A stretch of 64,000 nucleotides of DNA from Chloroflexota bacterium (GTDB lineage Bacteria; Chloroflexota; Anaerolineae; JAAYEA01). The translations under genes were made by a program, and so were the position numbers. How positions within the stretch are numbered: position 1 is the first letter of the stretch; each line of letters opens with the position of its first letter. The notes below the pieces were generated by a model. It saw only the letters and a list, made by a program, of their open reading frames with translations. It searched no databases and was not told the DNA's origin. Location of the stretch: contig JAIOAV010000005.1 in assembly GCA_019873665.1 (NCBI GenBank), positions 1-64,000 on the forward strand, written 5' to 3'. Shown in pieces: positions 40,776 to 61,191 of the stretch.

Positions 40776-40790
40776 AAAGCGAGCCATCAT

Positions 40791-41819: not shown

Positions 41820-41922
41820 GCGGGCAGCAGTAACCAGACGGATCACAACAAGGGGACCAACGCGTGATGCGGCCGCATCATGCGACACCCGCAAGATAAT
41901 CATCAAGAGGAGGAAGAACGAC

Positions 41923-42324
41923 ATGACCGTTTATCTGCCCGGTCTTCTGTACACCAAGACGCATGAATGGGTCAAGATCGAGCAAGAGGGGGACCAAGCC
42001 GTGGCCGTCAGCGGCATCTCCGACTATGCTCAGGAAGAGCTCAACGACGTGGTCTATGTTGAGCTACCAGAGGAGGGAGACGAGTTCGAGCAAGGGGAAA
42101 CATATGCGGTTATCGAGTCAGTCAAGGCCGCATCTGACATCCAGATGCCCCTGAGCGGCGAGATCATCGCCGTCAACCGTGCATTGGAGGACACCCCGCA
42201 ACTGGTCAACGAGGACCCCTATGGCCGGGGATGGATCATCAAGCTGCGTGTCCGCAACCAGAGCGAGGCAGATCAGTTGCTGGACGCCGCAGCGTATGAG
42301 GCGTTCATTGCCGAGGAGGGCTAA
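41923..42324 (+). CDS. gcvH: Glycine cleavage system H protein (lipoyl carrier)
   Basis: …YTKTHEWV…AVIESVKAASDIQMPLSGEI… with the lipoyl-lysine in ESVKA. Confidence 0.9.
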   Translation: MTVYLPGLLYTKTHEWVKIEQEGDQAVAVSGISDYAQEELNDVVYVELPEEGDEFEQGETYAVIESVKAASDIQMPLSGEIIAVNRALEDTPQLVNEDPYGRGWIIKLRVRNQSEADQLLDAAAYEAFIAEEG

Positions 42325-42325
42325 G

Positions 42326-45208: not shown

Positions 45209-48200
45209 TCAGGGCAGCCTGCGCTCCCACACGCCATCGTTGGTGCCAGCATAGATCAACTGGCAGCGGACATAATCCAGCGCCAGCGCTTGCACCACGC
45301 GGTTCTCCAGCCCTTCATCGAGAGGTCTCCAGTAGAGGCCACCATTGGTCGTGATCAGCACGCCGCTCCCCGATGTCCCGGCGAATACGACCTGTGCACT
45401 GAGGGGATCCAGCGCGAGGCTATAAGTGCGGCCCAGGCCACCGACATACGTCCAGCTCTGGCCGCGGTTGTCGCTGCGAAAGACGCCGCCGTCCGTCCCC
45501 GCATAGACGATGGCCGGATTCGCCTGGCTGGTGACGATCGTCCAGACCACATCATTGCCCAGCGGCACATGCGACCACGATGCACCGCCGTTCGTCGAGC
45601 GATAGATGCCTCGGTCATAGGTGCCCGCCAGGATGAGCTGCGGATCCACCGGGTTGACGGATACCGAGCTCATCTGCAAGCTGCCGAGGCCGTTATTGAC
45701 GGCGTTCCACGACGCGCCGCCGTCAACGCTTTTGAAGACACCGGTCATCGCCGTAGCTGCATAGACGGTGCGGTCCACAGCATAGTTGGGGGAGATCGCC
45801 AGGCCGTACACATACGGGCTGGTCAGCCCGGTGTTGGCCGGCTGCCAAGTGATCCCACCATCGGTGGAACGATAGATGCCCGCATCGCCCCATGTGCCGA
45901 CAAAGACATGCCCGGCCGGCGAGGCTGTGGCCGCAATGGCATAGACAGCGACCGACGGCAGGCTGACGTTGGCGTACCACTCGCCGCCGCAGTAAAGGTG
46001 GCGGAAGAGACCACGATCGGTGCCAGCATAGACAGTCTGCGTGTTGCCCGGATCGGTCGCCAACGACTTGATCTCTACAGCCGTGAGGCCGCTCCGTTCC
46101 CAGACGACGGGATAGTCGCGGTAGATCAGCGGCAGTTGCAGCAGCCGGATCACAGTCGGCGTGGGCGTGGGGGTCTGGGTTGGCGTCTCGGTTACGGTGG
46201 GGGTCGCCGATGGCGATGGAGTCGTCGTGGCGGTCGCCGTATCCGTCGGCGTGGCAGTCGGCAGCGGCGAACCGGTCGCCGTCGGGGTCGGCGTCGGTTT
46301 GCTCTTTAGCGTGTAGCGCCACACACCACGCCCCCATGAACCGGCAAAGATCGTACGCCACACATTCGGCGAAACCGCCAGCGACGAGAGATAGGTAAAA
46401 TCAAGCCCCTCGCTAAAGGGCTCCCAACTCACGCCGGCATTCGTGGAATGATAGACACCGTGCTCGTCCGTGGCGACGTACACGGTCTGGTCAAGCAGGA
46501 ACTGCCCCAGCGTGATCGCTGCAACGCCATCATCGGGCAGGCTTGCGCCGACCGGCCGCCATTGGCCCCCGCCATCTGTCGAATAGAGCACCCCGCCGCC
46601 GCCAGCGGCAGTCGCATAGCCAGCAAAGATCGTGTGGTCGGAGATATAGCTAGGCGACAACGCTAATGAGCGGAACGTCACCTCGGCCGCCACCTCTGCC
46701 GGCCACTCTATCACCACGGGAGTCCAGAGGCTGCCGCCGTCAATAGACTTGAAAAGCTGGCCCCGATCTCCTCCCGCAAAGACCGCTTTCGTCTCGCCCG
46801 GCGGGTCAGTCTCGTTATAACCAGGCGACACAGCTACCACGCTGAACGCCGTGCCATCAGATACCAATGCTGTATTCCAGTCGCTGCCCATGTTTGTGGA
46901 CTTTAGAATGCCAGACGGGCCGGCGGCCAAGAACAAGGTCCGATCTGTGAGAAAGCGGGATGGAATGGCGAACATCTGCACGGAGGATCGCTCCGGCACG
47001 GTATAGACTTGCGTCCAAGAGATGCCGCCACGATTCGAGCGATAGACTTGACCATCCTGCCCGCCAGCGAAGACCAGGTTTGAGGCGACGCCGACACTGT
47101 GGATGGAACGCACCGCGCGCGGCAAGCCGCTGTTAGCCGTTTGCCATGTCTGCCCACCATCCGAGGACTGGAAGATGCCTCCCTCCAGCGTGCTGGCCAT
47201 CAGAAAGCGATCCAGGCCAAAGAGTGGCGAGATGCCGACAGAGGTCACATGCAAAGCGTTCAGTCCGATCGAGCTCTGCTGCCAGACATCCTGCACATTC
47301 CGCCGCAGACGGTACACACCGCGGCCCCGAGTTCCCAACCATACGGTCGAGTCGCGGTTGAAGGCTGGCGAGATAGCGACTGATTCGGCAACCGTCTCCT
47401 CGAGGCCATTGTTGAGCATCACCCACTGCAATCGGCCCAGACCATCGCGGCCGTTGGTCGCATACATGATACCACCGACCGGATAGTCCACATCCGGATA
47501 GAAGGAAGCAAAAGCGACCGCGTCGGTCTTGAACGTGGTAGAGAGCGCCACAGAGGAACAGGTGGGGAACGGGTTCAGCTGACTCCAGCCCGCGCCGTTA
47601 TCCGCTGTCCAGAGCAGCCCCTGACCCTCGGTCGCAACGAATATCGTCCGGTCAGCGGCGTAATCGGGGGAGAGGACGATCTGCCGTACGCTCGCCCCAT
47701 CCGGCACCTGGTAGAACGGATTCCAGTTAACGCCATCGTCTGATGAGCGCAGGATCCGCCCATCGCTGGTGCCCACAAAGATCACCGGGCTCCGCGGGTA
47801 TGTCGGCGCCAGGGCCACCGCGGAGATCACCACACCCGTTACCGGCGCTGCCAGGATCAAAGTCCATGTGTCGCCACCATTTGTGGAGCGATAGAGAGCG
47901 CTGGACGTGGATACCACGCTGGCGAAGACAATGTGGTCCGTGCGGAAGTTAGGAGAGATGGCAATAGCCGGAATGCCGATGCGTCCGGTCGGTTCTGGCG
48001 ATGGCATGGCGGGCGAGCAGTCACCCCATGTTCTCCCTTGATCATCAGAGCACCAGAGGCCGTCTTGGCGTGTCCCGACATAGATCATGCCACCTGTAGC
48101 ACCGCTTTCCGCCGCAAAATCCGGCGAGATCGCCATCGTCTGGATGGGCACATTCACCTGCCGGCCGGTCTCCCGCCAAGTATCAGCGCCATCATTCGAG

Positions 48201-48493
48201 ACAAAGACGCCACAAGAGGTGCTGGCGAAAAGGGTAGTGTCGCGGTTATAGGCGGGAGAGACAACGAGGCTTGAGACCGTGCCTCCCCATGGTCCGTTTG
48301 TCGTCCAATATCCCTCGGGGGTCTGCGTGGGGATCGCGGTCGGCAAGACTTGCGCGAACACACTGCCAGCAGAGTGGGGCACCATGACCCGGTTGGAGAT
48401 GCCTGGGGCGATGAGCAACGATACTACCAAAACCGCCCCGATTACGAACATCATGCCGCTAGGCCCATGTGTTGGCTCGTGCGTGTGGTTCAT
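45209..48493 (-). CDS. Secreted BNR/Asp-box repeat protein (two beta-propeller-like regions joined by a Thr/Pro-rich linker)
   Basis: >12 S-x-D-x-G-x-T/S-W Asp-box motifs (STNGGDTW, SDDGVNW, SSDGGQTW, STDGGITW, SDNRGQSW …), N-terminal signal/TM, central PTPTPTATGSPLPTATPTDTATATTTPSP linker. Confidence 0.75.
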   Translation of the reverse strand: MNHTHEPTHGPSGMMFVIGAVLVVSLLIAPGISNRVMVPHSAGSVFAQVLPTAIPTQTPEGYWTTNGPWGGTVSSLVVSPAYNRDTTLFASTSCGVFVSNDGADTWRETGRQVNVPIQTMAISPDFAAESGATGGMIYVGTRQDGLWCSDDQGRTWGDCSPAMPSPEPTGRIGIPAIAISPNFRTDHIVFASVVSTSSALYRSTNGGDTWTLILAAPVTGVVISAVALAPTYPRSPVIFVGTSDGRILRSSDDGVNWNPFYQVPDGASVRQIVLSPDYAADRTIFVATEGQGLLWTADNGAGWSQLNPFPTCSSVALSTTFKTDAVAFASFYPDVDYPVGGIMYATNGRDGLGRLQWVMLNNGLEETVAESVAISPAFNRDSTVWLGTRGRGVYRLRRNVQDVWQQSSIGLNALHVTSVGISPLFGLDRFLMASTLEGGIFQSSDGGQTWQTANSGLPRAVRSIHSVGVASNLVFAGGQDGQVYRSNRGGISWTQVYTVPERSSVQMFAIPSRFLTDRTLFLAAGPSGILKSTNMGSDWNTALVSDGTAFSVVAVSPGYNETDPPGETKAVFAGGDRGQLFKSIDGGSLWTPVVIEWPAEVAAEVTFRSLALSPSYISDHTIFAGYATAAGGGGVLYSTDGGGQWRPVGASLPDDGVAAITLGQFLLDQTVYVATDEHGVYHSTNAGVSWEPFSEGLDFTYLSSLAVSPNVWRTIFAGSWGRGVWRYTLKSKPTPTPTATGSPLPTATPTDTATATTTPSPSATPTVTETPTQTPTPTPTVIRLLQLPLIYRDYPVVWERSGLTAVEIKSLATDPGNTQTVYAGTDRGLFRHLYCGGEWYANVSLPSVAVYAIAATASPAGHVFVGTWGDAGIYRSTDGGITWQPANTGLTSPYVYGLAISPNYAVDRTVYAATAMTGVFKSVDGGASWNAVNNGLGSLQMSSVSVNPVDPQLILAGTYDRGIYRSTNGGASWSHVPLGNDVVWTIVTSQANPAIVYAGTDGGVFRSDNRGQSWTYVGGLGRTYSLALDPLSAQVVFAGTSGSGVLITTNGGLYWRPLDEGLENRVVQALALDYVRCQLIYAGTNDGVWERRLP

Positions 48494-48610: not shown

Positions 48611-48646
48611 AAAAGGGCGCGCCCAGCAGACAGGCGCGCCCCGTGG
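48611..48646 (-). terminator. Rho-independent terminator closing the long minus-strand operon
   Basis: Minus strand: ggggcgcgcc-tgtctgctg-ggcgcgccc followed by ttttctgtc, immediately after the stop of the SHMT-GcvT fusion gene. Confidence 0.65.
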
Positions 48647-48653
48647 GCCATCG

Positions 48654-51600
48654 CTACTCTTGCGGCTCCGCGCCGCTTCGTCTTGCCTTCTCCTCCGGCG
48701 TTGGGAATCGCTCCAGGACTGTAGCCCATTCGGGAAGCAGCACACGATCCCCTAGTTGCAGGGCATTCATCGGCTTGGCTTCAGGCATTCGGTCCGGCGC
48801 AGGAAGCGCAAAGATGCCGATCGGTGTGCCCGCCTCGTTATAGCGCTTCTCCACATATGCCATGCCCATCTGCATCCCGCCGATGAGCGTGCAGCTTGTC
48901 ACCCAGCCGATGTGTTGACCGTTGCGGTTGACGACGGGATCATCCTGCCGCAGGGCGCGTGCGCCGCTGCGGTCCACGCGGAAGCGGACCACTGCCATCG
49001 TCCGGTTGGCTTCCTGGGCAATGCACGCCTGTCGGCCAATGAAGAACGGCTTGTGGAACTTGACAAAGAGGGCGAACCCCGCCTCTGTTGGTTTGATGTC
49101 ATGCGGGCCAGCCAGCTCGTGTCCATAGAGCGGCAGCCCCGCCTCCATGCGCGTCGAGTCGCGCGCGGCCAGGCCACATGGCCGCAGGCCCTCCTTCTCT
49201 CCGTTTTCCAGCAAGAGTCGCCAGAGGCGCACCGCATGATCCGGATGTACGTACAGCTCGTAGCCAATATCCTCGCCAGTGTAACCGGTGCGCGCCACGA
49301 TGAGCGGGATGCCTGCCAGCACGGTTTCGATGAAATGCGTGCGGCGAATGCGCGCCAGCGCGCGCTGTTGGCGGGGATCTTCCGTCAAGCTCTGCAAGAT
49401 AGCCAGCGACTTGGGCCCCTGCAAAGCCAGGTCCACCAGCCGATCCGCGCCGCTTTCGGAGGACTGCAGGTTGCGGATGGTAACCGGCGCGGGCGTCTGC
49501 ATGGCGGGATTGGCGCGGTCTATACGCACCTCGCCCGCGTTCACCGCGCGCAGCCATGCCAGGTCCTTGTCGGTGTTGGCCGCATTCACCACCACCAGAT
49601 AGCGGTCCCAGCAGCGACGGTAGATCATGAGGTCATCCAACACATGTCCATCCGGATCCATCAGATAGCTATAACATGATTGGCCGTCACGTAGCCACCG
49701 CACGTAATTCGTGCTCACCAGGTCGAGGAACGCAGCGGCATGCTCCCCCGCCACCTCGAGGACGCCCATGTGCGCCACGTCAAACAAGCCTGCCGCCCGG
49801 CGCACTGCCTGGTGTTCTTCTGCCACACTGGTGTACCACACCGGCATCTCCCACCCGGCAAAGGGGATGATCTTGCGGGTGAGACGGCGATGCTCTTCAT
49901 AGAGCGGCGTTCGCTTGAGAGGCTGTTCTTTGTCTTCCCAGTGGAATTCTCGCTTATCGCTGGCGGGCAACAGCGACGCATACGCCTTTTGCCCCACAAA
50001 ATACGGTTTGGTCAGCGCGAAATAGGCAGGATATGCCTGCTGCAGATGTGCCAGCGAGAGTTTCTCGGTGGCCGATGGCAGCGGCCAGCCCAACTGCGTC
50101 CGCAGCACTGGCTCGGCCTCCGGCCCCATCACCGTCGCGCCCCTCGCGTGCAGCGCCTCCAGAAGCACCCTTCGCGCCGTCTGGTGAACCAGGATCTCGT
50201 AGCGGGGCATGTCACCGCTTGCTGCCAGTGCGACCCAGGCCATCTGGTCACGCAACGCTTCGCCGGCCTGTAGTGCGCCATGCCACCAGACGGCTGGCGA
50301 CAGCTCGACGCCTAGCCCGTGCAGGATCGCGGGCGCTGCTGTCCCCTGCAACACGATCAATGCCAGCCGATCCTCAGCCGGCGGCTCGTCGCCCAGGTCG
50401 TCTACCACCACTGGCCCCTCAACCTTGGCCAAAAGGTCATCAGGGTCAAAGACCACATACCCATCCGAGAGATCCCGCAGCCACGCGCGCACCCGCTGCC
50501 GCGTCTCGGCAGGCAAGGTCAGCCAATAGCGGTCCGATTCCGTATCGCCAGCGGACATACGCCAGAGAGTGGCGTCCGACATCAGGGTGCCATCTGGCTC
50601 CAGAAGAAGGGTGCGATCCGCCTGTTGCGGGCGGAGCTCAGCCAGATTGCGCGTCGCTACCTGCTGCAAGAACGCACTGGCGCGGTCGCCGCTGATCTGC
50701 AGGATGCCGGCGGCCGTCAGATCAACGCCCACAGCGCCCTCCGTAGTGGCTTGCAAGATGGGCGTCGCCTCCGCCACGCTCGTGGCGGAGGCATTGCTCC
50801 CCTCGGCACTATCATAGTGCGGGTAGCCGGAACCGCGCGCGGCGGTTTCGGCCGGGGTTGCCTCGGCTATTCTGTTCACTTGACGTTTGACCTCCTCAAT
50901 GATTTCGAACGGGATCTTGCCGCGAGGCATCTCGCCGCGCGACCCAATGTAGTAAAATGGGTGGACGTTGGTCACAATACGATGGATGAGGCCGGCCAGG
51001 ACGTCCATGTCCGTCGGCCCCATGCCGCGCTGCGTCAGCCACGGAGTGCCGAGCCGCACGCCGCTTGCCAGCGCTGTTACGGTGTCGCCGGGGAGGGTGT
51101 TCTTGTTGGCCACCAGCCCGCACAGTTCCATGATCCGCACAGCGATCTCGCCGCGCACCGGCAACCCATTCGGCGTCTCGATCGCGCGAAGATCGAGCAA
51201 GCACATGTGCGTATCGGTCCCGCCATAGGCGACGCGCAGCCCGCGCGACTGCAGGCCTGCCGCCAGCGCCTGGGCATTCACCACGATCCGCTGTTGGAGC
51301 TCGCGGAACTGCGGCGTGGCAGCGATTTTGAACGCGACCGCCATCGCCGCGAACTTGTTCGTGTGTGGCCCACCCTGCGCTCCGGGGAAGACGGCGGCAT
51401 CCACCAGCTTGGCCCTATCTTCATCTGTGGTCATGATCACGGCACCACGCGGCCCGCACATGGTCTTGTGCGTGGTAAAGGTGATCACATCCGCCAGTCC
51501 CACCGGCGAAGGGCAGACGCCCGCGCACACCAGGCCCGCCGTATGCGCGATATCAGCCATGAGCAGCGCGCCACAGGCATCGGCGATCTCACGGAATGCC

Positions 51601-52298
51601 TTCCAATCCGGCGCCCACGGGTAGGAGGTAAAGCCAGCGACGATCAGCTTGGGGCGGTACTCCAGCGCGAGCCGTTGAATCGCCTCATAGTCGAGGCGCT
51701 CCGTTTTGGGGTCCACGCCATACGAGACGACATGATACCGTCGGCCGGAGATGTTGAACTCGCTGCCATGCGTCAGGTGGCCGCCCTGGAAGAGATCCAT
51801 CCCCATCAGCGTGTCGCCAGCTTTCAGGAAGGCGTCATAGACGGCTAGGTTGGCGGCAGCGCCCGATAGCGGCTGCACGTTCACATAGATGTCTGCTGCA
51901 GACACATCGGGGGTGGCAAAGAGGCTGGCGCAGCGCCGCTGTGCCAAGCACTCGATAAAGTGCACATAGTCTGCGCCCTTGTAAAAGCGTCTGTCTCCAT
52001 AGCGACGATAGTTGGCCAATTGGCGGGAGAGATCGAGGATGCCCGCCTCATCCTCTTCCATCATGCGTAGCGGCGGGTAGCCCTCTGCGTAAACGTTCGT
52101 GAACACCGAGGCCAGAGCCTCGCGCACCGGCTGCGGACAGATGCTCTCCGATGGGATAAAGATGAGCCGCCGCGCCTGGCGCTCCTCCTCCAAACGGATA
52201 ATCAGGTCAATGTCCGCGTCGACATCGGCCAAGCGACGACCCCATACGTCGCGATAGTCGCCCCCCTCATGCGACGATTGACCTGTCCCTTCTGCCAT
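48654..52298 (-). CDS. Tri-domain fusion protein: serine hydroxymethyltransferase + GcvT-like folate-binding domain + complete aminomethyltransferase (glycine cleavage T protein)
   Basis: Residues ~20-470 are a full SHMT (…FIPSESICPQPVREALASVFTNVYAEGYP…, PLP-Lys motif TTHKTMCGPRGAVIM). Residues ~800-1200 are a full GcvT (RTPLYEEHRRLTRKIIPFAGWEMPVWYTSVAEEHQAVRRAAGLFDVAHMGVLEVAGEHAAAFLDLVSTNYV…). The intervening ~300 aa carry a second, degenerate GCV_T-like domain (…ILQISGDRASAFLQQVATRNLAEL…). It is a single uninterrupted 1214-codon frame. Confidence 0.8.
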   Translation of the reverse strand: MAEGTGQSSHEGGDYRDVWGRRLADVDADIDLIIRLEEERQARRLIFIPSESICPQPVREALASVFTNVYAEGYPPLRMMEEDEAGILDLSRQLANYRRYGDRRFYKGADYVHFIECLAQRRCASLFATPDVSAADIYVNVQPLSGAAANLAVYDAFLKAGDTLMGMDLFQGGHLTHGSEFNISGRRYHVVSYGVDPKTERLDYEAIQRLALEYRPKLIVAGFTSYPWAPDWKAFREIADACGALLMADIAHTAGLVCAGVCPSPVGLADVITFTTHKTMCGPRGAVIMTTDEDRAKLVDAAVFPGAQGGPHTNKFAAMAVAFKIAATPQFRELQQRIVVNAQALAAGLQSRGLRVAYGGTDTHMCLLDLRAIETPNGLPVRGEIAVRIMELCGLVANKNTLPGDTVTALASGVRLGTPWLTQRGMGPTDMDVLAGLIHRIVTNVHPFYYIGSRGEMPRGKIPFEIIEEVKRQVNRIAEATPAETAARGSGYPHYDSAEGSNASATSVAEATPILQATTEGAVGVDLTAAGILQISGDRASAFLQQVATRNLAELRPQQADRTLLLEPDGTLMSDATLWRMSAGDTESDRYWLTLPAETRQRVRAWLRDLSDGYVVFDPDDLLAKVEGPVVVDDLGDEPPAEDRLALIVLQGTAAPAILHGLGVELSPAVWWHGALQAGEALRDQMAWVALAASGDMPRYEILVHQTARRVLLEALHARGATVMGPEAEPVLRTQLGWPLPSATEKLSLAHLQQAYPAYFALTKPYFVGQKAYASLLPASDKREFHWEDKEQPLKRTPLYEEHRRLTRKIIPFAGWEMPVWYTSVAEEHQAVRRAAGLFDVAHMGVLEVAGEHAAAFLDLVSTNYVRWLRDGQSCYSYLMDPDGHVLDDLMIYRRCWDRYLVVVNAANTDKDLAWLRAVNAGEVRIDRANPAMQTPAPVTIRNLQSSESGADRLVDLALQGPKSLAILQSLTEDPRQQRALARIRRTHFIETVLAGIPLIVARTGYTGEDIGYELYVHPDHAVRLWRLLLENGEKEGLRPCGLAARDSTRMEAGLPLYGHELAGPHDIKPTEAGFALFVKFHKPFFIGRQACIAQEANRTMAVVRFRVDRSGARALRQDDPVVNRNGQHIGWVTSCTLIGGMQMGMAYVEKRYNEAGTPIGIFALPAPDRMPEAKPMNALQLGDRVLLPEWATVLERFPTPEEKARRSGAEPQE

Positions 52299-52325
52299 AG
52301 GCTAACTCCTTCATGTGATCGTCTT

Positions 52326-53516
52326 CTAGCCCAATCGCCTCTCTGGCTTGAGCTGGTTCGGGTCTCCCCAGAAAGTGTGATTCACCCAGCGCGGGATGTC
52401 CACCCCGCTCAGCCGCCAGGCGCTCTCCACAATCACAAACATATCACCAGACACCAAAGAATGCCCGCCCATCACAACCGGGATTGGGCTTTCCATGGCG
52501 GCCTCGGTAAAGGTGCGCACAAACTCGTTCTCGATCCTGTCCGGCCGCAACAAGTCCGAGTTGAACCGATCAGCAGGAGAGGGCCAAACGCCAAAGTGTA
52601 CCCAGAGGACACGGTCGTCAAAGAAAACCGCCTGAGCCATCTCCCCCAGCGTGCTAAAGAAACGGCGCGGTCCCACCTTCTCATAGTAGTAGCCCAGCAA
52701 CGAGCGCACCTCGCCGCGATCCTGTCGCCCGCTGGCCCGCATGCCGCGCTCCTCCGAGAAGACGCGCACCCGGCAGGCCGCTTCCTGTTCCATATACGCC
52801 AGCGTGGCCGAGGAGATTCGCCCTGCCAGCACGATCTCTGACGAGCGGTTGACAAAGAACTTCATGGAGCGTTGCAAGTGCGACGTGTCAAGTTTGAGGC
52901 TATTCAGATACGTCTGCAGGTTCTCGCCCAGCTCCGGCTGGAAGGTCAGCACCATCAGATCAACCGGCGTGTCAATGTCGAGCTGGCTGGCGGCCGAGCG
53001 GGGCAGCGAGACGTTGGGCAGCCCGTTCTTCTGTCCCATCCGCCAGCCGAGATCGTTGTCATAGGGCGGTGGATGGATCTCGTTGATGTGCGAGGCGGGC
53101 GTGAACGCGCAGAAATCGGTGGAGTAAAAGTTGTTGGTGATCAGCAGCGAATCTGCCTTGAGCGTCTCTTGCGCGATCTCGCGGAGCTGTTCCACCGTCA
53201 GTAGGATGCCGCTGCCCCCTCCCATGTAGATCACCTTGGGCAGCCGATATTGATTGATGATCTCGCGCAAACGAAAGCCAAAGTGAAACTTGGCGTCGGC
53301 CGGGTCCTTTTCGATCACGACCGGCCAATCGCGCAATCGCGCGATCAGATCGGTGGAATTGGTCGAGATAATGATGGGGCCAACATTCCCGGCTGCCAGC
53401 GCCTTGGCTACCATGTCAAGGGTGGACGCAACCAATGCGCCCGCCATCATCTCCTCGACCTCGCTCGCTGCGGTCACGCCGGTCATGATGATCATCGGAA
53501 CCTGATCTTGCGCCAT
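52326..53516 (-). CDS. Hypothetical two-domain protein (uncharacterised; N-terminal alpha/beta nucleotide-binding-like fold)
   Basis: 396-aa ORF sitting 28 nt upstream of the fusion gene in the same operon; no confident family match (weak resemblance to MobA/CofC-like and DUF2088-like folds). Confidence 0.4.
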   Translation of the reverse strand: MAQDQVPMIIMTGVTAASEVEEMMAGALVASTLDMVAKALAAGNVGPIIISTNSTDLIARLRDWPVVIEKDPADAKFHFGFRLREIINQYRLPKVIYMGGGSGILLTVEQLREIAQETLKADSLLITNNFYSTDFCAFTPASHINEIHPPPYDNDLGWRMGQKNGLPNVSLPRSAASQLDIDTPVDLMVLTFQPELGENLQTYLNSLKLDTSHLQRSMKFFVNRSSEIVLAGRISSATLAYMEQEAACRVRVFSEERGMRASGRQDRGEVRSLLGYYYEKVGPRRFFSTLGEMAQAVFFDDRVLWVHFGVWPSPADRFNSDLLRPDRIENEFVRTFTEAAMESPIPVVMGGHSLVSGDMFVIVESAWRLSGVDIPRWVNHTFWGDPNQLKPERRLG

Positions 53517-53555
53517 TTTCCCTCGCTGTTCTGGGATCTCCCGGTGTTTGGGCTC

Positions 53556-55748
53556 TCAACTTGTCGCTTGCGCACTCAACCCCACCAACTCGCTGACCAA
53601 CTGCACCAGCTCACGCGCTTTCTCTGGAGTGTCCGATTCCGCGAATATCCGCAGCAAGGGCTCCGTGCCGGAAAAGCGCAGAATCACCCAATTATCGTTC
53701 TCCAACAGGAACTTGGTCCCGTCCAGATGTGAGACATTAACCATGCGATAGGGACCCAGCGCTGGGACGCTCATCTGGCGCAGCCGTTGCGGGATAATCA
53801 CCTTCATCTCAGAAGTGGCTGGCAGGTTCTCCTCAACAGTGTATAACCGCCCGGTCAGCGCATGGACCTCTTGCAGCAGTTGCGAGATGCTCTTGCCGGT
53901 GCGCGCCAGCATCTCCACCACCAGCACGGCGGCCAGGATGCCGTCCTTGCCCATGATATGCCCGCGGATCGTCAGGCCGCCGCTGCTTTCCCCGCCCAAT
54001 AGCGCATCGGTGCGCTTCATCGCCGCGGCGATATGTTTGAACCCCACCGGCACCTCGACGCACGTTTCGCCCAGGCGGCGCGCCAGCCGATCCAGCATGT
54101 GGGTCGTAGCGAGATTACGCACGACGCCACCCTTATAGCCGCGGATCTCGTGCAAGTAGTAGTAAAGGAGCAACAGGATATCATTGATATGAATATAATC
54201 GCCGCGCTCGTCCACAATCGCAATACGATCCGCATCACCATCCATCGCCAGGCCGAGGTCATAATGCCCATCGCGTATTTCCGCGATCAGCATGTTGAGA
54301 GCTTTCAAGTCGGGCGCTGGCGAGCGACCGCCAAAGAGCGGATCGTGGCGACCGTGAATGATCACCACGCGGCAGCGCGCCTCGATCAGGATGATCTCCA
54401 GCGTCACCTGCCCCACGCCATACATTGGATCAACGATCACGCGCAATCCAGCGCGTCGGATCACATCCAGGTCCACAAACGATTCCACCGCATCCACATA
54501 CTCATTCGTAAAGTCAGCGCGGCGCACGATGCCGGCGCTTTCCGCCAGATCCAGCTCGATCTTGACAACATCCTGCATTCCGAGCTGGTTTGCCTCGTCC
54601 TCCACCTCGCGCGTCTCCTCATCCATCAGAAGGGAGCCATCCGTCAGAAACACCTTGAGCCCGTTGTATTCGGGCGGGTTGTGGCTGGCGGTGAAGGCTA
54701 ATCCCAGCACAGCATTCTGGATGCTGGCGGCATAGGTGATGAGCGGCGTCGGCGCGTCCTCGCTCAACAATACCACCGGGATGTTGTTGCCGGCGAACAC
54801 CTCCGCGGCGGCCTCCGCCGAGCGATCAGAAAGAAACCGTCGGTCATAGCCGATCACCACGCCACGCGCCTCGGTGCCCTCGCGGATGAGCTTGTTCGCC
54901 AGCGCCTGACAGAGGCGGCGCACATTGTGAAGTGTGAATCCCTCACCGATCACGGCGCGCCATCCGCCTGTGCCAAACTGGATGATATGCTCCTCTTCCA
55001 CGCGCTTGGGCCGGTAGAAGCGTTTCTGCAGGATGAACTCAGCCTCCTGCAGGTCTTGCGGCGTGTTGATGCCCAGTATCTCATCCTGATCATAGCTTTG
55101 ATAGCTCTCGACGCGATGGCCGGCGCGGATGAGGCGGTGAACCAGGTCGGTGAGCAGGTATCGCTTGGCCCCGCTCTGTGCCAACAATGCGAGCGCCGCA
55201 AAGAGCGGTTGCGCCTTGAACACATACGCGCCCAGGTTCAGCTCGCGGATCTTTTGCACCTCAGCGGAGGCATCCGCCTGCTCGATGATATCCACTACAT
55301 TCCCGCGACTATCGCGGATGATGCGCCCATAAGGAAGAGGCTGGTCGGAGATGGCGGTAAAGAGGGTCAGATCGGCACCCTTCAGGCGATGCCGATTGAG
55401 CAACCCGCGCAGCGAAGCAGGGCGAAAGAGGGGCGTGTCGCCATAGAGGATGAGCAGATCGCCGCCATAGTCTCCCAGCTGGTCGCGAGCCTGCCACACC
55501 GCATGGCCGGTGCCCAGCGGCTCATCCTGAATCACATAATGATAGGCCGCGCCGAGGTGCGCCTGTAACTTTTCGCGCTCGTATCCCGCGACGATGTAAA
55601 GATCGTCTGGGGCCACAAACCGGAGGGCGTTTTCCACCACATAGTCTATGATCGCCCTGTCGCCAAGCCGCTGCAGCAACCGGGGATAGGGCGCGCCCGC
55701 GCCCTCGCCGGGGCTGGCGGCGAGAATGATCGCTTTGAGCTGATCCAC
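53556..55748 (-). CDS. Bifunctional sugar-1-phosphate nucleotidyltransferase (GlmU-N-terminal-like) / phosphohexomutase (PGM/PMM family) fusion
   Basis: N-terminal ~245 aa NTP-transferase (ILAASPGEGAGAP…, LILYGDTPL). C-terminal ~470 aa alpha-D-phosphohexomutase with the phosphoserine loop TASHNPPEYNGLKV and metal-binding DGDADR. GTG start. Confidence 0.75.
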   Translation of the reverse strand: MDQLKAIILAASPGEGAGAPYPRLLQRLGDRAIIDYVVENALRFVAPDDLYIVAGYEREKLQAHLGAAYHYVIQDEPLGTGHAVWQARDQLGDYGGDLLILYGDTPLFRPASLRGLLNRHRLKGADLTLFTAISDQPLPYGRIIRDSRGNVVDIIEQADASAEVQKIRELNLGAYVFKAQPLFAALALLAQSGAKRYLLTDLVHRLIRAGHRVESYQSYDQDEILGINTPQDLQEAEFILQKRFYRPKRVEEEHIIQFGTGGWRAVIGEGFTLHNVRRLCQALANKLIREGTEARGVVIGYDRRFLSDRSAEAAAEVFAGNNIPVVLLSEDAPTPLITYAASIQNAVLGLAFTASHNPPEYNGLKVFLTDGSLLMDEETREVEDEANQLGMQDVVKIELDLAESAGIVRRADFTNEYVDAVESFVDLDVIRRAGLRVIVDPMYGVGQVTLEIILIEARCRVVIIHGRHDPLFGGRSPAPDLKALNMLIAEIRDGHYDLGLAMDGDADRIAIVDERGDYIHINDILLLLYYYLHEIRGYKGGVVRNLATTHMLDRLARRLGETCVEVPVGFKHIAAAMKRTDALLGGESSGGLTIRGHIMGKDGILAAVLVVEMLARTGKSISQLLQEVHALTGRLYTVEENLPATSEMKVIIPQRLRQMSVPALGPYRMVNVSHLDGTKFLLENDNWVILRFSGTEPLLRIFAESDTPEKARELVQLVSELVGLSAQATS

Positions 55749-55790
55749 AGGCCGACTCCCCTCTATGAGCTATCATGCTCGCAAATAGCA

Positions 55791-55991
55791 CTATCCGCCG
55801 CCGATCATGTGCAAGACCTTGACCGTGTCTCCCTCGTAGATGGGAGACTGATCATAGGCGGCGGGCTCTACCACCATGCCGTTCACGATAACGATCAGGC
55901 AAGGCGACGTAAAGCGGCAAGCTTCAAGCAAGGTTGTAACCGTCATTCCCTCTTGCCACTCGACCTCGAACTTGTCGTTAACGCGGATCAT
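55791..55991 (-). CDS. ThiS/MoaD-family sulfur-carrier-like protein (C-terminal Gly-Gly)
   Basis: 66 aa, beta-grasp-like pattern (MIRVNDKFEVEWQEGMTVTTLLEA…IVIVNGMVV…GDTVKVLHMIGGG). Confidence 0.7.
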   Translation of the reverse strand: MIRVNDKFEVEWQEGMTVTTLLEACRFTSPCLIVIVNGMVVEPAAYDQSPIYEGDTVKVLHMIGGG

Positions 55992-58150
55992 CGGAGATGT
56001 TTCTTCACCACATCCAGCACGTCGGGAAAGTCAATACCCAACTCTGCCAGCTTTTGCGGCGTGGGCACACCATCGTGCGTCCAGCCGCGCCGCGCATATA
56101 CCGCGTCCTTGAGCAGCTCGTATTGCTGTTCACGGTGCGCCCGCAACAGCGCCATCTTTTCCGCCGTGGTCTTGCCCGCGATATCATGGCCCAGGTCGCG
56201 CAGCTGTTTGTCGTAACGCTCCTGCCGCGACTCGTACTCCTCGGCAGTTACTGGCCCCATCGAACGGTATGGGATCTCATCATCCTGGCGCAAGCCGTGT
56301 CCCAGCCGCAGGTTAAAGACACGCTGAAAGTTATAGACCTTCTCGGACATGAGGATGAGGTCATCGCCGCTGCGTACATCATCGCGCCCCGTAACGCCGA
56401 CAAAGTAATCCACATAGTTGCGGACGTGTTCCGGCACCTTGGCCGGCTCGTCGGTCTGGCGGTTGTCCGCTGGCTCGATGTCGTTCCAGATGATCTTGCA
56501 GAGGCCATTCAGCCCGAACCAGGTGCGCCACATGGGAAAGTAATGCAGCGCCTCTGCCTTGTCGGCAAAGGTCGGGATCTGGTTGTTCACCATATCCATA
56601 AAGATCAGCCACGCCTCGTCGTGCTGCGGCCCCTTGAGCGTGAGGCCATAGCCGCCCTGCATGGCCAACGACTCTTTCGTTACATACTCGGAAAACTCCA
56701 GCCCCTTAGACTCCATGCCGATGTCGTGCATGAAAGCCGGATCGCCGCCGTACTTGTCCGCAAAGAGGCGCTTCATGCGGCGCACGCCCTGGCCCACAAC
56801 GGGGCCAAAGCCCTCGCCGCGCCCCATCTGATGCAGCAGCTCCAGCACCGCCTCGGCGTTTCCCCAGCGCAGCTCCAGGCCACCGGTGATCTCCTTGTTC
56901 AGGATGCCCGCCTCGTAGCACTCCATGGCAAAGGCGGTAGCCGTGCCGAACGAGATGGTGTCAATGCCATAGGTGTCGCAGTAATAGTTGATCTCGATCA
57001 CCGCTTCCGGGTCGAATATCCCCAGGTTGGAGCCGCATCCGGCAATCGTCTCGTATTCAGGCCCATCTACGCCCACAACCCTGCCCTTGTAGGGGCCGCT
57101 CTTGAGCGTGAATCCGTCCACACGTTTGGAGCAGGCCATGGTGCAGCCATACCAGCAGCCATCAGGAATGCCCTGTGTGAACAGCTCGCAAAAGACCTTG
57201 GCCGAGAGGCGACCGGCCTCCGGGTGCTCCCCATACTTGAAGTTATGTGTAGGGAGCAGGTCATAATCGTTCATGATCTGGATAAGGTGCGATGTGCCCA
57301 CCGCGCGCATGTGGCGCTGCAAATGATCCAGGTCATGCATCTCGCGATGCATCTTGAGCCCGACGCGGCGCACGCGGTTGAGGTCAGCAGGTTGATTCGA
57401 GTCGCTGCGCACGTCGCGCCGCTTGACGACGATGGCCTTGATCCGTTTGTCGCGCAGCACAGTGCCGGTGCCGCCGCGTCCCGCCTGCTTGAAACGGAGA
57501 GCGCGGCGACGGTTGTCGTACCAGCTAAAGTTGAGACAGCCCATGCGCGTATGCTCTGCGCCGCTGCCGGCGGCCACCACCGAGATCGCCTCTCTGTCAT
57601 CCTCGGTCCGGGCATACTTGTCCATCATCTGCTGACCGATGACGTGCGCGTCCGCCACGCCCTCGGGCGCCCCTTCGATGCGCACAATGCCCGTGTCACC
57701 ATCTATGTAGATGACGACATCGCGCGAAGCCTTGCCCTGGATCTCCAGCGCGTCCCAACCGGCGAACTTGAGCAGGGGACCAAAGTGGCCACCCACGTTG
57801 CTGTCAATCACCGAGTCGGTGAGTGGAGAGATGCTGACCACGATGGACTTGCCCGAGCCAGGGAAGGTGGTGGTGCCGCCCAGCGGACCAGCGGAGATAA
57901 CGATCTCGTTCTCGGGATCGTCCCAACGGGTGTCATCGTGAATCCCATGCCACAAAAGCCAGAGGCCAAAGCCACGCCCCCCGATAAAGAGATCCTTCAT
58001 CAACTTGGTCACCGGCTTGGCAGCGATAGTGTTATCCGACACATTGACATACAGCGTCTGGCCAGCATAGCCCCGCCATACCTCAGGGCGCTCATAGAGA
58101 AACTCGGCCAGGGGTTCGCTCGTTTCCGTCAGCCAGTCGTTTGCGCTCAT
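55988..58150 (-). CDS. aor: Aldehyde:ferredoxin oxidoreductase (tungsten/molybdopterin AOR family) catalytic subunit
   Basis: 720-aa AOR-family protein (…DLFIGGRGFGLWLL…, Cys ligands for the [4Fe-4S] …CWYGCTMAC…, pterin-binding regions); start at MSANDW with ATGA overlap with the upstream ferredoxin gene. Confidence 0.85.
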   Translation of the reverse strand: MSANDWLTETSEPLAEFLYERPEVWRGYAGQTLYVNVSDNTIAAKPVTKLMKDLFIGGRGFGLWLLWHGIHDDTRWDDPENEIVISAGPLGGTTTFPGSGKSIVVSISPLTDSVIDSNVGGHFGPLLKFAGWDALEIQGKASRDVVIYIDGDTGIVRIEGAPEGVADAHVIGQQMMDKYARTEDDREAISVVAAGSGAEHTRMGCLNFSWYDNRRRALRFKQAGRGGTGTVLRDKRIKAIVVKRRDVRSDSNQPADLNRVRRVGLKMHREMHDLDHLQRHMRAVGTSHLIQIMNDYDLLPTHNFKYGEHPEAGRLSAKVFCELFTQGIPDGCWYGCTMACSKRVDGFTLKSGPYKGRVVGVDGPEYETIAGCGSNLGIFDPEAVIEINYYCDTYGIDTISFGTATAFAMECYEAGILNKEITGGLELRWGNAEAVLELLHQMGRGEGFGPVVGQGVRRMKRLFADKYGGDPAFMHDIGMESKGLEFSEYVTKESLAMQGGYGLTLKGPQHDEAWLIFMDMVNNQIPTFADKAEALHYFPMWRTWFGLNGLCKIIWNDIEPADNRQTDEPAKVPEHVRNYVDYFVGVTGRDDVRSGDDLILMSEKVYNFQRVFNLRLGHGLRQDDEIPYRSMGPVTAEEYESRQERYDKQLRDLGHDIAGKTTAEKMALLRAHREQQYELLKDAVYARRGWTHDGVPTPQKLAELGIDFPDVLDVVKKHLR

Positions 58151-58608
58151 GACATCACCCTCTCCGCCCACATTTCGGTCTGTGATCTCCCCGGCTCTGG
58201 CTGCTCCTCGATGCGCAATGCCCCTGAGGGGCATACTTTGACGCACTTGCCACACGCGACACACTTGAACGGCGCCAGTTCGTCTGGATGATGGCGCATG
58301 GCGCCAATGGGGCAGAAGGCGACACATGCCAGACAGCCCATACATAGCCTGTCCTCGCCCGAGCGCCCTGGGTCGATGCGCACTACGCCGACAGCATTCC
58401 GCGCGATAGCCACGGTCTGGCAGATGTCAATGCATTCGCCGCATTGCGAGCAGACCACGATCCGATAGGTATCTGTACCCGGTGCCGGGTCATAGACGCG
58501 GATGGCCGCTTTCTCCCGATCGCGCACGTGGAACCAGGTCTCGGCACATGTTTCCTCACACAGGTGGCATCCCGTGCAAAGCTCCGCCTGGACAGAAAGG
58601 ACCTTCAT
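58147..58608 (-). CDS. Poly-ferredoxin ([4Fe-4S] x3-4) electron-transfer subunit associated with AOR (AorA-like)
   Basis: Multiple CxxCxxCxxxCP motifs (CTGCHLCEETC, CSQCGECIDIC, CMGCLACVAFCP, CVACGKCVKVCP). Confidence 0.8.
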   Translation of the reverse strand: MKVLSVQAELCTGCHLCEETCAETWFHVRDREKAAIRVYDPAPGTDTYRIVVCSQCGECIDICQTVAIARNAVGVVRIDPGRSGEDRLCMGCLACVAFCPIGAMRHHPDELAPFKCVACGKCVKVCPSGALRIEEQPEPGRSQTEMWAERVMS

Positions 58609-58661
58609 AGCTTCACCTCTCCTGTGGTATGACGGCCCAGCTTGACCAGCTACGGTATCGT

Positions 58662-58690
58662 ATTATAGACCAGAGTAGCACGTATGGCAA
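58662..58690 (-). promoter_or_regulatory. Sigma70-like promoter (TTGCCA-17-TATAAT, minus strand) for the ferredoxin-AOR-…-SHMT/GcvT operon
   Basis: Reverse complement reads ttgcca tacgtgctactctggtc tataat, ~55 nt upstream of the ferredoxin ATG, with RBS ggagaggtg. Confidence 0.5.
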
Positions 58691-58729: not shown

Positions 58730-58757
58730 TTGACATTCACCTGGCGCAAGGTATAAT
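58730..58757 (+). promoter_or_regulatory. Sigma70-like promoter (TTGACA-16-TATAAT) for proB-proA, divergent from the AOR operon promoter
   Basis: ttgaca ttcacctggcgcaagg tataat ~50 nt upstream of the proB ATG. Confidence 0.5.
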
Positions 58758-58806: not shown

Positions 58807-59898
58807 ATGCGCATCGTGGTCAAAGTGGGAACCCGCACCTTGACGCAAGGTGGCAGCCGGCTGAGTCGTCCCTATATGCTGGAGCTTGTGCGCCAGATGG
58901 CGCAACTGCACGCCGACAGGCACGAGATTATCCTGGTCTCGTCGGGGGCAGTCTTTGCGGGGCGAGAAGCGCTGGGCACATTGCCAAACCGGCGCGACAT
59001 CCCCTTCAAGCAGACGCTGGCGGCCATCGGGCAGGTGCGGTTGATGGCGATCTATGAGCAGCTATTTCAGCTTTATGATGTAATCATCGCACAGGCACTG
59101 TTGACCCGTGCGGACCTGGCGAACCGCGAGCGGTATCTGAACGCCCGCAACACGATGCAGTCGCTGCTGGATCTGCGCGTCATCCCGATCATCAACGAGA
59201 ACGATGTGGTGGGCGTGGAGGAGATCCGCATCGGCGACAATGACAATCTCTCAGCGTTGGTGGCCAACCTGGTGGACGCCGATCTGCTCATCATCCTCAC
59301 GGACCAACCCGGGCTCTTCACCGCTGACCCGCGCCTCGACCCGCAGGCAGAGCTCATCCCGGAGGTGCGCGTGATTGATGAGCGCATCCGGCGGCTGGCG
59401 GGTGGAAGCGGTTCCGGCATCGGCACTGGCGGCATGGCGACCAAGATCGAGGCGGCAGACCTGGCGACTCATTCGGGCACGGAGGTAGTTATCGCCGCAG
59501 GTAACACGTCTAACGTGCTGTTGCGGTTGGTGGCCGGCGAGGCGTTGGGCACGCGGTTTTTGGCCGCGACCAGCCATGTGGAGGGGCGCAAGCGCTGGAT
59601 CTTGGCGGAAGCGCCGCGCGGCGAGATCGTCGTTGATGCCGGTGCCGCCGACGCCATCACGCGCCAGGGAAAAAGCCTCCTGCCGGTGGGTATCGCGGAG
59701 GTGCGCGGCGCGTTCCAGCGCGGCCAGACCGTCCGGCTGCTCGCGCCAGATGGCCGCGAGATCGCGCGCGGCATTACGCACTACGACGCCGAGGATGTGA
59801 TCGCCATCCGACGACACCGTTCAGATGAGATCAGCGACATCCTGGGATACGAGTACGGCCCGGCGGTCGTGCATCGAGATGATCTGGCGCTGGTCTAG
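58807..59898 (+). CDS. proB: Glutamate 5-kinase (with C-terminal PUA domain)
   Basis: MRIVVKVGTRTLT… amino-acid kinase fold, PUA domain at the C-terminus. Confidence 0.9.
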   Translation: MRIVVKVGTRTLTQGGSRLSRPYMLELVRQMAQLHADRHEIILVSSGAVFAGREALGTLPNRRDIPFKQTLAAIGQVRLMAIYEQLFQLYDVIIAQALLTRADLANRERYLNARNTMQSLLDLRVIPIINENDVVGVEEIRIGDNDNLSALVANLVDADLLIILTDQPGLFTADPRLDPQAELIPEVRVIDERIRRLAGGSGSGIGTGGMATKIEAADLATHSGTEVVIAAGNTSNVLLRLVAGEALGTRFLAATSHVEGRKRWILAEAPRGEIVVDAGAADAITRQGKSLLPVGIAEVRGAFQRGQTVRLLAPDGREIARGITHYDAEDVIAIRRHRSDEISDILGYEYGPAVVHRDDLALV

Positions 59899-59931
59899 GC
59901 GCTTTGGTTTGCAGACGAGAGGAGTGAGAGC

Positions 59932-61191
59932 ATGTTCGCCGAGTTGGAGCAATTGGGGAAGCAAGCGCAACGTGCCGCGCGGCGGCTGCGCACGCTGGAT
60001 ACCGAGACAAAGAATCGCGCTCTTGAGGGGATCGCCCAAGTGCTGCGGGAGCGCCAAGCCGATATCCTGGCCGCCAACGCTGAGGATCTGACAGCAGGTC
60101 GCGCCACTGGCCTGAGCGAGGCGATGCTGGAACGCCTCCTGCTCAACGAGGCGCGCTTGCAGAGCATGGCCGCGGACATCCGTCACATCATCGCGCTGCC
60201 GGATCCGGTTGGCGAGACCTTTGATGGGCAGACGCTGCCGAATGGCCTGCAGATCACCAAGCGGCGCGTCCCTATCGGCGTCATCGGCGTGATCTACGAG
60301 TCGCGGCCCAATGTAACGGTGGACATCGCATCACTCTGCATCAAATCCGGGAACGCGGCTATCCTACGCGGCGGCAAAGAGGCGGCATGCTCGAACGCGG
60401 CGTTGGCCGAGGCGGTGGCTGCCGGGTGCGAACGAGGCGGTGTCCCCCGTGAGGCGATCCAACTCATCCGCTCGCAGGAGCGAGAGCTGGTGAAGGACAT
60501 GTTGACCGCCGACCAGTATATCAACATGATCATCCCCCGTGGCGGCGCCGGGCTGCACGATTTCGCGCGGCGGAACGCCACCATCCCCGTGATCACCGGC
60601 GGCATTGGCATCTGCCACATATTCATTGACGAATCAGCCGACATCGCCAAGGCGATCCCCATCGTGTTCAACGCCAAGGTGCAGCGCCCGACCGTCTGCA
60701 ATGCCCTAGACGTGCTGCTGGTGCATGCCAGCATCGCACCGCGTATCCTGCCCGCCATCGCCGCCGATCTGGCACGCGCCCAGGTGGAGCTGCGTTGCGA
60801 TCCACGCGCTCATGCCATCCTGCGCGATCACCCGCTTGCCAAGCCCGCCGGGCCGGAGGACTTTGACACCGAATTTCTGTCACTGGTGCTGGCCGTCAAG
60901 GTGGTGGACTCGCTGGATGAGGCGCTAGATCACATCGAGCAACACAGCACGCATCATTCAGACGCCATCCTCACCGAGAATTACAGCCATGCCATGCGCT
61001 TTACCGATGAGGTGGATTCGGCAGCGGTGTATGTCAACGCCAGCACGCGCTTTACCGACGGCAGCCAGTTCGGCCTGGGGGCGGAGGTGGCCATCAGCAC
61101 GCAGCGGCTGCACGCCCGCGGGCCGATGGCGCTGCGCGAGCTCACCACTTACAAGTGGGTCGTGCTGGGCGATGGGCAGGTGCGGCCGTAG
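59932..61191 (+). CDS. proA: Gamma-glutamyl phosphate reductase
   Basis: ALDH-fold with catalytic Cys region (TGGIGICHIFIDESAD… / CNALDVLLV) and ProA-like termini. Confidence 0.9.
   Translation: MFAELEQLGKQAQRAARRLRTLDTETKNRALEGIAQVLRERQADILAANAEDLTAGRATGLSEAMLERLLLNEARLQSMAADIRHIIALPDPVGETFDGQTLPNGLQITKRRVPIGVIGVIYESRPNVTVDIASLCIKSGNAAILRGGKEAACSNAALAEAVAAGCERGGVPREAIQLIRSQERELVKDMLTADQYINMIIPRGGAGLHDFARRNATIPVITGGIGICHIFIDESADIAKAIPIVFNAKVQRPTVCNALDVLLVHASIAPRILPAIAADLARAQVELRCDPRAHAILRDHPLAKPAGPEDFDTEFLSLVLAVKVVDSLDEALDHIEQHSTHHSDAILTENYSHAMRFTDEVDSAAVYVNASTRFTDGSQFGLGAEVAISTQRLHARGPMALRELTTYKWVVLGDGQVRP

Follow-up and report, generated by a model that had tools for sequence, protein, structure and literature searches.

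Aldehyde:ferredoxin oxidoreductases (AORs) have a broad aldehyde specificity, and the aor operon of Aromatoleum aromaticum encodes, together with the enzyme AorABC, MoaD-like proteins that are regarded as putative cofactor-maturation factors (PMC6365974). WOR5 of Pyrococcus furiosus (PDB 6x1o) and an AOR with its Fe-S subunit (9mqx) are heterodimers of a catalytic subunit and a four-cluster subunit of about 150-170 aa. Here we describe a gene cluster of a Chloroflexota bacterium (GCA_019873665.1, contig JAIOAV010000005.1) in which genes for an enzyme of this kind share a strand with genes for sugar-nucleotide and glycine/serine one-carbon (C1) metabolism. The cluster occupies positions 58690-48614 on the minus strand of the stretch of 64 kb that was analysed, called the window below. 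An earlier note on this DNA had read it as a dedicated pathway leading from the AOR to C1 metabolism. We think it likely that it is instead a mosaic of three independent modules that have been joined in a few close relatives. Module A comprises a ferredoxin gene (fdx), the AOR gene and a gene for a MoaD/ThiS-like protein. Module N is a fusion of a nucleotidyltransferase and a phosphohexomutase (NTP-PGM). Module U consists of a gene for a 396-aa protein, U396, and of a fusion of serine hydroxymethyltransferase (SHMT), a GcvT-like domain and GcvT.

Distribution of the three modules

One genome per species was scanned with an alignment of the U396 family, and relatives of U396 turned up in at least 588 species. 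All window proteins were compared by tblastn with 80 loci around U396 relatives, and a scan of metagenomes with the NTP-PGM alignment returned nine loci. Individual loci are given by L numbers.

The arrangement A+N+U was found, besides the window, only in L081, L099 and L085. The first two belong to the genus of the window (87-98% identity) and are organised identically. In L085, whose AOR is 79% identical, the order is Fdx-AOR-ThiS, NTP-PGM, two small open reading frames (ORFs), U396 and SHMT-GcvT. The linkage that the earlier note had suggested looking for in related Chloroflexota is therefore kept in these three loci but, L085 excepted, largely absent beyond the genus or family level. The two small ORFs (12707-13736; 197 and 140 aa) gave no Pfam match and occur between NTP-PGM and U396 in L085 only. 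The AOR of L099 was called as a 312-aa protein with AFOR_C only; a pseudogene was considered and rejected, because the truncation is due to an assembly gap of Ns.

Other relatives carry the modules in part. L001, the closest of the 80 loci (71-78% amino-acid identity), shows the synteny of the window without ferredoxin, AOR and ThiS: proA/proB are divergent from NTP-PGM, which is followed by U396, SHMT-GcvT and a gene for a BNR-repeat protein. NTP-PGM, U396, SHMT-GcvT and BNR without AOR are also found in L084 (U396 71% identical). L088 (AOR 84% identical) has AOR-ThiS-NTP-PGM and then hrcA-grpE-dnaK, with no module U, and in L082/L083 (U396 78% identical) a QueG-like gene precedes U396 and SHMT-GcvT, the sole genes of the cluster there. 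L088 and L083 come from a shared sample, with G+C contents of 0.576 and 0.588 and a tetranucleotide correlation of r = 0.92, so that the A+N and the U of these two contigs may belong to one organism. Fdx-AOR-ThiS stands free in L086 (next to an RraA-like gene), L097 (next to a pyrroline-5-carboxylate (P5C) reductase gene) and L098 (behind an aminotransferase gene and in front of a convergent phosphatase gene), and L087 has Fdx-AOR without ThiS among unrelated neighbours. NTP-PGM occurs without the other modules in L089-L092, beside ABC permeases or a GHMP kinase. Loci of 46 representative species extend 6 kb or more upstream of the U396 gene, and none of them carries Fdx, AOR or ThiS. Among relatives with, in each case, roughly 75-85% identity to the window, the three modules occur in free combination.

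On these comparisons the coupling of AOR to C1 genes is a shallow, lineage-specific juxtaposition at genus to family level. All the genes are new members of known families, and a lineage-specific juxtaposition of such ordinary modules does not justify a pathway hypothesis; we infer that no pathway is shared. In the shallow clade a promoter that was there before is followed by module A and then by module N; A may have been inserted at this place or, alternatively, lost from it precisely in sister lineages. No anomaly of G+C content was detected over the AOR module by composition analysis, and direct or inverted repeats flanking it, which might have been insertion scars, amounted to short matches at chance level.

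Several points weigh against the mosaic. The adjacency of A and N recurs in at least three of the sampled lineages (the window group, L085 and L088) and that of all three modules in two, so that some selective advantage of co-expression is possible. The relatives compared are metagenome contigs; the absence of an AOR holds for the locus only, and an AOR may be encoded elsewhere in the same genome. Finally, U396 may be linked to either of its neighbour genes.

Transcription of the cluster and alternative explanations

The six ORFs follow one another on the minus strand in the order ferredoxin, AOR, ThiS/MoaD-like protein, NTP-PGM, U396 and SHMT-GcvT fusion. Domains and families were assigned by Pfam gathering scores and NCBIfam cut-offs. 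A sigma-70-type promoter-like site, TTGCCA-17-TATAAT (58662-58690, minus strand), matching the consensus at 11 of 12 positions, precedes them. Behind them lies an intrinsic-terminator-like hairpin of 12 bp, nine of them GC, with a T-tract, TTTTCTGT (48614-48642, minus strand; terminator scan and direct reading). No other strong signals on the minus strand flank the cluster. In the sequence itself, the stop of the ferredoxin gene overlaps the start of the AOR gene in ATGA, as does the stop of the AOR gene with the start of the ThiS gene. The remaining gaps measure 42 nt (ThiS/NTP-PGM), 39 nt (NTP-PGM/U396) and 27 nt (U396/fusion), each with a purine-rich ribosome-binding site. The earlier note had described the gene order, the promoter, the terminator and the tight junctions (overlapping or below 45 nt) in the same way. 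A consensus scan, which detects sigma-70-like promoters only, revealed no promoter-like or terminator-like site in the internal junctions.

The promoter core 5' of fdx, GTTTGCCATACGTGCTACTCTGGTCTATAATA, aligns with the region 5' of fdx in L081 and L085 and with the region 5' of NTP-PGM in L001 and L084, which lack the AOR. Its extended motif CTCTG-N3-TATAAT occurs once in the window (0.01 occurrences expected), and TTTG-N12-CTCTG-N3-TATAAT is present at orthologous positions 5' of fdx in L081/L099 and 5' of NTP-PGM in L001/L084. Because it is kept at orthologous positions in relatives, the motif is more than a chance match to the consensus. Another copy of TTTG-N12-CTCTG-N3-TATAAT is found in L046 (11330-11359, plus strand), from a distant Chloroflexi genome (46% identical), where it lies some 250 nt 3' of the U396 gene; either chance or a promoter type in common may account for it. 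A perfect 12/12 site, TTGACA-16-TATAAT (window 58730-58757, plus strand), which would serve the divergent proB-proA genes, stands back to back with the promoter of fdx. The intergenic region that holds both promoter-like sites is 198 nt long, and the perfect proB-proA site is also present in L001 (7605-7578).

The six genes probably form one transcription unit. Co-transcription is plausible because the unit is compact, lies on one strand and has a promoter and a terminator at its ends, and it is supported by the location of the AOR trio between the orthologous promoter and NTP-PGM. The same location also shows that the downstream genes do not depend on the AOR. It might still be thought that weak internal promoters, for example within thiS or in the 42-nt spacer, drive NTP-PGM, U396 and SHMT-GcvT apart from the AOR genes. 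The gap between ThiS and NTP-PGM does vary (42 nt in the window, 149 nt in L085, about 490 nt in L093), housekeeping C1 genes plausibly need expression that is independent of an accessory oxidoreductase, and promoters of other classes would have escaped the scan. Nevertheless we regard more than one transcription unit as unlikely: the internal junctions of the window are free of detectable promoters and terminators, its gaps of 27-42 nt hold only ribosome-binding sites, and the ancestral promoter of N+U is now upstream of fdx.

A single transcript would be in keeping with the dedicated pathway of the earlier note, in which the AOR oxidises a C2 aldehyde, for instance glycolaldehyde or glyoxylate, or forms it reductively, and thereby feeds glycine and serine via SHMT-GcvT. 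In a variant the AOR would remove the acetaldehyde that arises when SHMT cleaves threonine to glycine, and the glycine cleavage system would consume the glycine. SHMT has a tetrahydrofolate (THF)-independent retro-aldol activity yielding aldehydes, and AORs are broad in their specificity. Tight packing on one strand between one promoter-like site and one terminator, and retention of the arrangement in L081, L099 and L085, also speak for the pathway. Had an operon of this type been conserved, it would have pointed to a new route, linked to ferredoxin, by which anaerobic Chloroflexota connect C2 aldehydes with glycine/serine. However, the parts are found without each other at equal evolutionary distance (L001, L084, L088, L082/83), the AOR module lies in four unrelated contexts (L086, L087, L097, L098), and the AOR is linked to U396 in 0 of the 46 species loci. 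SHMT-GcvT is widespread without an AOR and looks like a housekeeping T-protein beside gcvP and lipS, and a Pfam scan of the cluster found no glyoxylate aminotransferase or other enzyme by which glycine could be connected with a C2 acid or aldehyde. The pathway, its acetaldehyde variant included, is thus quite improbable. A functional pair of AOR and NTP-PGM, with the C1 genes as bystanders, is very improbable indeed. In this pair the AOR would act on a sugar-derived aldehyde, similar to GAPOR, in sugar-phosphate or sugar-nucleotide metabolism, and NTP-PGM does follow ThiS directly in the window, L081, L099, L085, L088 and probably L093. But these loci, in which NTP-PGM is at least 81% identical, all fall into a single narrow clade, so that their adjacency probably goes back to one ancestral event. 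NTP-PGM exists without the AOR in L001, L084 and L089-L092 and the AOR without NTP-PGM in L086, L087, L097 and L098, and the match of the AOR to the GAPOR family of NCBIfam is negligible (34 bits; cut-off 1300). Compared with these alternatives, the mosaic of three modules accounts best for the distribution.

Components of the modules

The reactions proposed in this section are those which family membership of the enzymes predicts. The first gene of module A encodes a polyferredoxin of 153 aa (58147-58608, minus strand; Pfam Fer4 families), a candidate AorA-like small Fe-S subunit with four [4Fe-4S] motifs, visible in the translation as four copies of CxxCxxCxxxC. Among PDB sequences it matched partner subunits of AORs: 9mqx_E (E 2.6e-12), AorA (8c0z_C, E 1.4e-8) and the Fe-S subunit of WOR5 (6x1o_B). 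The catalytic subunit of 720 aa (55988-58150, minus strand) is well recognised by Pfam, with 162.4 bits for AFOR_N (cut-off 29.8) and 329.4 bits for AFOR_C (cut-off 27). Its start is most likely the ATG at 58150 and not that of the longest ORF (785 aa), because this ATG forms the ATGA overlap with the fdx stop and the gene calls in L081 agree. The best relatives of solved structure are 1AOR (E 1e-56), 9mqx_D (E 2.9e-52) and 8c0z_A (E 9e-52). In the alignment to 1AOR the C-x3-C-x3-C of the window protein (GCWYGCTMAC) falls on CYACPIGC of the P. furiosus enzyme, where CxxCxxxC holds ligands of the [4Fe-4S] cluster beside the pterin; two cysteines match exactly and the first is off by one residue. 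The fourth ligand of the cluster falls outside the aligned block. AORs of about 720 aa form a large and well conserved clade in Chloroflexota, with thousands of matches at about 70% identity, and to our knowledge no member has been characterised. The label "tungsten-type" given to the AOR by the earlier note is an assumption: the sequence does not discriminate tungsten from molybdenum. No gene for a tungstate transporter was seen in the window.

The third gene of the module (55791-55991, minus strand) encodes a sulfur-carrier-like protein of 66 aa with a C-terminal GGG (...HMIGGG), assigned by Pfam ThiS (E 1.8e-9) and TIGR01683 (46.6 bits; cut-off 37.45). The earlier note had taken it for a component specific to the pathway. 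It is better explained as a maturation factor of the AOR cofactor, by analogy with AorD/AorE, because of its conserved position directly after AOR (in L081, L085, L086, L088, L097 and L098) and of the role proposed for its counterparts in Aromatoleum (PMC6365974). Pfam detected no FAD/NAD-binding gene of the AorC type in the cluster or in the related loci examined (L081, L085-L087, L097 and L098). For lack of such a subunit the AOR of module A is probably a two-subunit enzyme whose acceptor is ferredoxin and not NAD+. The 720-aa subunit would oxidise an aldehyde to the acid at a tungsten- or molybdenum-bis-pyranopterin site. Electrons would pass from its own [4Fe-4S] cluster to the four clusters of the small subunit and on to ferredoxin, and the 66-aa protein would be a dedicated sulfur carrier for maturation of the cofactor.

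Two features of the neighbourhood of module A may be mentioned here. Beyond proB/proA lies a gene for a molybdoenzyme of the xanthine dehydrogenase (XDH) family (903 aa, with fused [2Fe-2S] domains; 61278-63989, minus strand). Its best NCBIfam match is the selenium-dependent XDH (813 bits, just under the cut-off of 830), and it is the second pterin-cofactor enzyme encoded close to the MoaD/ThiS-like gene. Genes of proline biosynthesis stand beside the AOR trio in two arrangements: proB/proA of the window (58807-61191) are divergent from fdx, and in L097 a P5C-reductase-like gene (3719-4576) directly follows ThiS. With only two cases this may be a coincidence.

Module N (53556-55748, minus strand) encodes 730 aa. 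A GlmU-like sugar-1-phosphate nucleotidyltransferase domain (aa 1-250; Pfam NTP_transferase) is followed by a phosphohexomutase (aa 250-730) in which the four Pfam domains PGM_PMM_I-IV all score above their cut-offs. Of the NCBIfam models, archaeal GlmM scored 308 bits (below its cut-off of 439) and the N-terminal domain of GlmU 190 bits, and no equivalog cut-off was reached. The translation contains TASHNP with the catalytic serine, the metal-binding DGDADR, and GINTPQDL. NTP-PGM is predicted to be a bifunctional enzyme that forms nucleoside diphosphate (NDP)-sugars: it would turn the 6-phosphate of a hexose or hexosamine into the 1-phosphate and this into an NDP-sugar, destined for the synthesis of envelope or glycans.

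The SHMT-GcvT fusion of module U has 1214 aa (52298-48654, minus strand) and three domains. SHMT (aa 1-470; 50889-52298) is recognised by Pfam (387 bits) and by NF000586 (413 bits; cut-off 335) and carries the motif of the pyridoxal phosphate (PLP)-binding lysine, TTHKT. The GcvT aminomethyltransferase domain (aa 791-1214 and the stop codon; 48654-49928) scored 313 bits with Pfam GCV_T and 310.3 bits with TIGR00528 (cut-off 235.85), and its GCV_T_C match of 24.5 bits lay just under the cut-off. While the earlier note had recognised these two domains, it had missed a third between them, a degenerate GcvT-like folate-binding domain (aa 471-790, about 470-790; 49929-50888) that is 29% identical to the C-terminal GcvT over 280 aa (BLASTP, E 3e-21). 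Accordingly Pfam GCV_T reports two stretches in the fusion, and tblastn gave cross-hits in relatives. The degenerate middle domain is general among the fusions of Anaerolineae, and variants of about 1100 aa with a truncated middle domain also exist. Proteins of this kind are widespread (at least 120 clusters of 1100-1240 aa) and are named GcvT by NCBI, and hundreds of copies are deposited in databases under this name; a literature search found no paper describing an SHMT-GcvT fusion.

The genes lipS1 and lipS2 for a pair of lipoyl synthases and gcvPA and gcvPB for the subunits of the glycine-cleavage P-protein (39927-45144, plus strand) are convergent with the cluster and lie 3.5 kb from the fusion, and L081 and L099 have the same gcvP neighbours. 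They were assigned by NCBIfam (LipS1, 274 bits, cut-off 230; LipS2, 346 bits, cut-off 270) and by Pfam GDC-P and GcvP2_C. This proximity points to housekeeping glycine cleavage and not to a specialised aldehyde pathway. No gcvH was spotted in the window. Judged by its domains and neighbours, the fusion is the SHMT and the glycine-cleavage T-protein of the organism on one chain. A single polypeptide would thus hold the two enzymes by which 5,10-methylene-THF is made or used and, with GcvPA/PB and LipS1/LipS2, would interconvert two glycines and serine, CO2 and NH3 in housekeeping C1 metabolism. No RNA family, riboswitches included, came up near SHMT when the window, L001, L028, L060 and L070 were scanned with Rfam gathering scores. 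Downstream of the terminator follows a gene for a protein of 1094 aa with BNR/Sortilin repeats (45209-48493, minus strand; NCBIfam F510_1955 family glycosylhydrolase, 236 bits) which has a promoter-like site of its own, TTGACT-17-TATATT (48592-48564). It is syntenic after SHMT-GcvT in L001, L081, L084, L099 and probably L082/83, and the lipS/gcvP genes converge on it and on the fusion.

U396 (52326-53516, minus strand) had been called a 396-aa unknown. It indeed has no match in Pfam or NCBIfam at E up to 0.01, and a profile of the family found nothing significant among PDB sequences (best match KdsB, E 0.056). However, the remote-homology check proposed in the earlier note, Foldseek on a predicted structure (pLDDT 88.9), revealed a recognisable fold: over the N-terminal 210 residues or so the model matched 6bwg, 2i5e, 7p97 and KdsB (E 1.7e-7 to 1e-4), the superposition with E 1.7e-7 having a TM score of 0.75 on the target. 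According to the model the N-terminal half (aa ~1-210) is a GT-A-like nucleotidyltransferase fold of the CofC/MobA type, followed by an unmatched alpha/beta domain (aa ~210-380). U396 has the motif LDIDTPVDL, of the (D/N)TPxDL type, comparable to the GINTPQDL of its neighbour's NTP-transferase domain, and some of its homologues are labelled MocA or CofC by JGI.

The U396 family is large, with at least 1817 proteins, and with 825 clusters at 50% identity. Full-length members have 365-400 aa without domain fusion, and shorter entries are fragments. All 80 loci examined are labelled Chloroflexota, except for two metagenome-assembled genomes with generic or conflicting labels. Of 71 assessable loci, 33, from two classes of Chloroflexota, have SHMT 3' of U396 and in the same orientation. 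For Anaerolineae this means the fusion, for Dehalococcoidia a standalone glyA (comFC/hpf, U396, glyA, rpsF). The genes upstream of U396 belong to 19 different clusters, and U396-SHMT is the sole deep linkage in the region. A single-domain response-regulator receiver gene of about 150 codons is often found directly after U396 (L016, L018-L020, L022, L023, L025, L027 and L030), in several Anaerolineae loci between U396 and SHMT-GcvT. The attention that the earlier note drew to the 396-aa protein was justified, but the conserved partner of this protein is SHMT and not the AOR. Module U, U396 followed by the fusion, is the deeply conserved core of the cluster. As a tentative proposal, which we hold to be possible and not probable, U396 could represent a Chloroflexota-restricted family of 370-400 aa that is an undescribed enzymatic or regulatory partner of SHMT and C1 metabolism, with the AOR recruited secondarily to the transcript in the clade of the window. 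If so, U396 could for example activate or modify a phospho-acid or a cofactor used together with SHMT.

The gain from the locus lies largely in annotation. It comprises a large uncharacterised Chloroflexota clade of 720-aa AORs with a polyferredoxin and a MoaD-like partner, a widespread tri-domain fusion which databases call plain "GcvT", and a phylum-wide gene consistently 5' of SHMT that is a reasonable target for work on C1 metabolism in Chloroflexota. The U396-SHMT pair and the tri-domain fusion are the most interesting of what remains.

Comparison with described systems

Module A resembles the aor operon of Aromatoleum aromaticum (AorABC with AorD/AorE; PMC6365974, PDB 8c0z) in that the gene of the catalytic subunit directly follows that of a small subunit with four [4Fe-4S] clusters. 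Both also include genes for small MoaD-like proteins, one in the window and two in Aromatoleum. They differ in AorC, the FAD/NAD-binding subunit, which is encoded in Aromatoleum and not in the window cluster, and in the catalytic subunit, which has 616 aa in Aromatoleum and 720 aa, about 100 residues more, in the window. With respect to its heterodimeric composition, module A is closer to WOR5 (6x1o_A/B were both matched) and to the enzyme of 9mqx, although the sequence identity to these is low.

NTP-PGM shares with GlmU and with GlmM and archaeal phosphohexomutases strong domain matches and the motifs TASHNP and DGDADR. In the window protein, however, the two activities are fused and the acetyltransferase domain of GlmU, a left-handed beta-helix, is absent. 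Since the scores lie under the equivalog cut-offs, the family label does not fix the sugar.

The fold of the N-terminal half of U396 resembles that of CofC/FbiD, the 2-phospho-L-lactate, phosphoenolpyruvate or 3-phosphoglycerate guanylyltransferases represented by 6bwg, 2i5e and 7p97, and of MobA, MocA and KdsB. In CofC/FbiD and MobA/MocA nucleotidyltransferases an N-terminal NTP-binding loop containing lysine or arginine is expected. The alignment of the U396 family has a conserved (L/V)(I/V)MTG...(M/V)AG in place of this signature and no conserved basic residue in its first 30 positions.

The fusion of module U has its counterparts in GlyA and GcvT, which are separate proteins in the standard glycine cleavage system: its SHMT and GcvT domains both exceed their NCBIfam cut-offs, the motif of the PLP-binding lysine is present, and genes for gcvPA/PB and lipoyl synthase are near. 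In contrast to the separate proteins, the window has a single polypeptide of 1214 aa with an additional, degenerate GcvT-like domain between the two.

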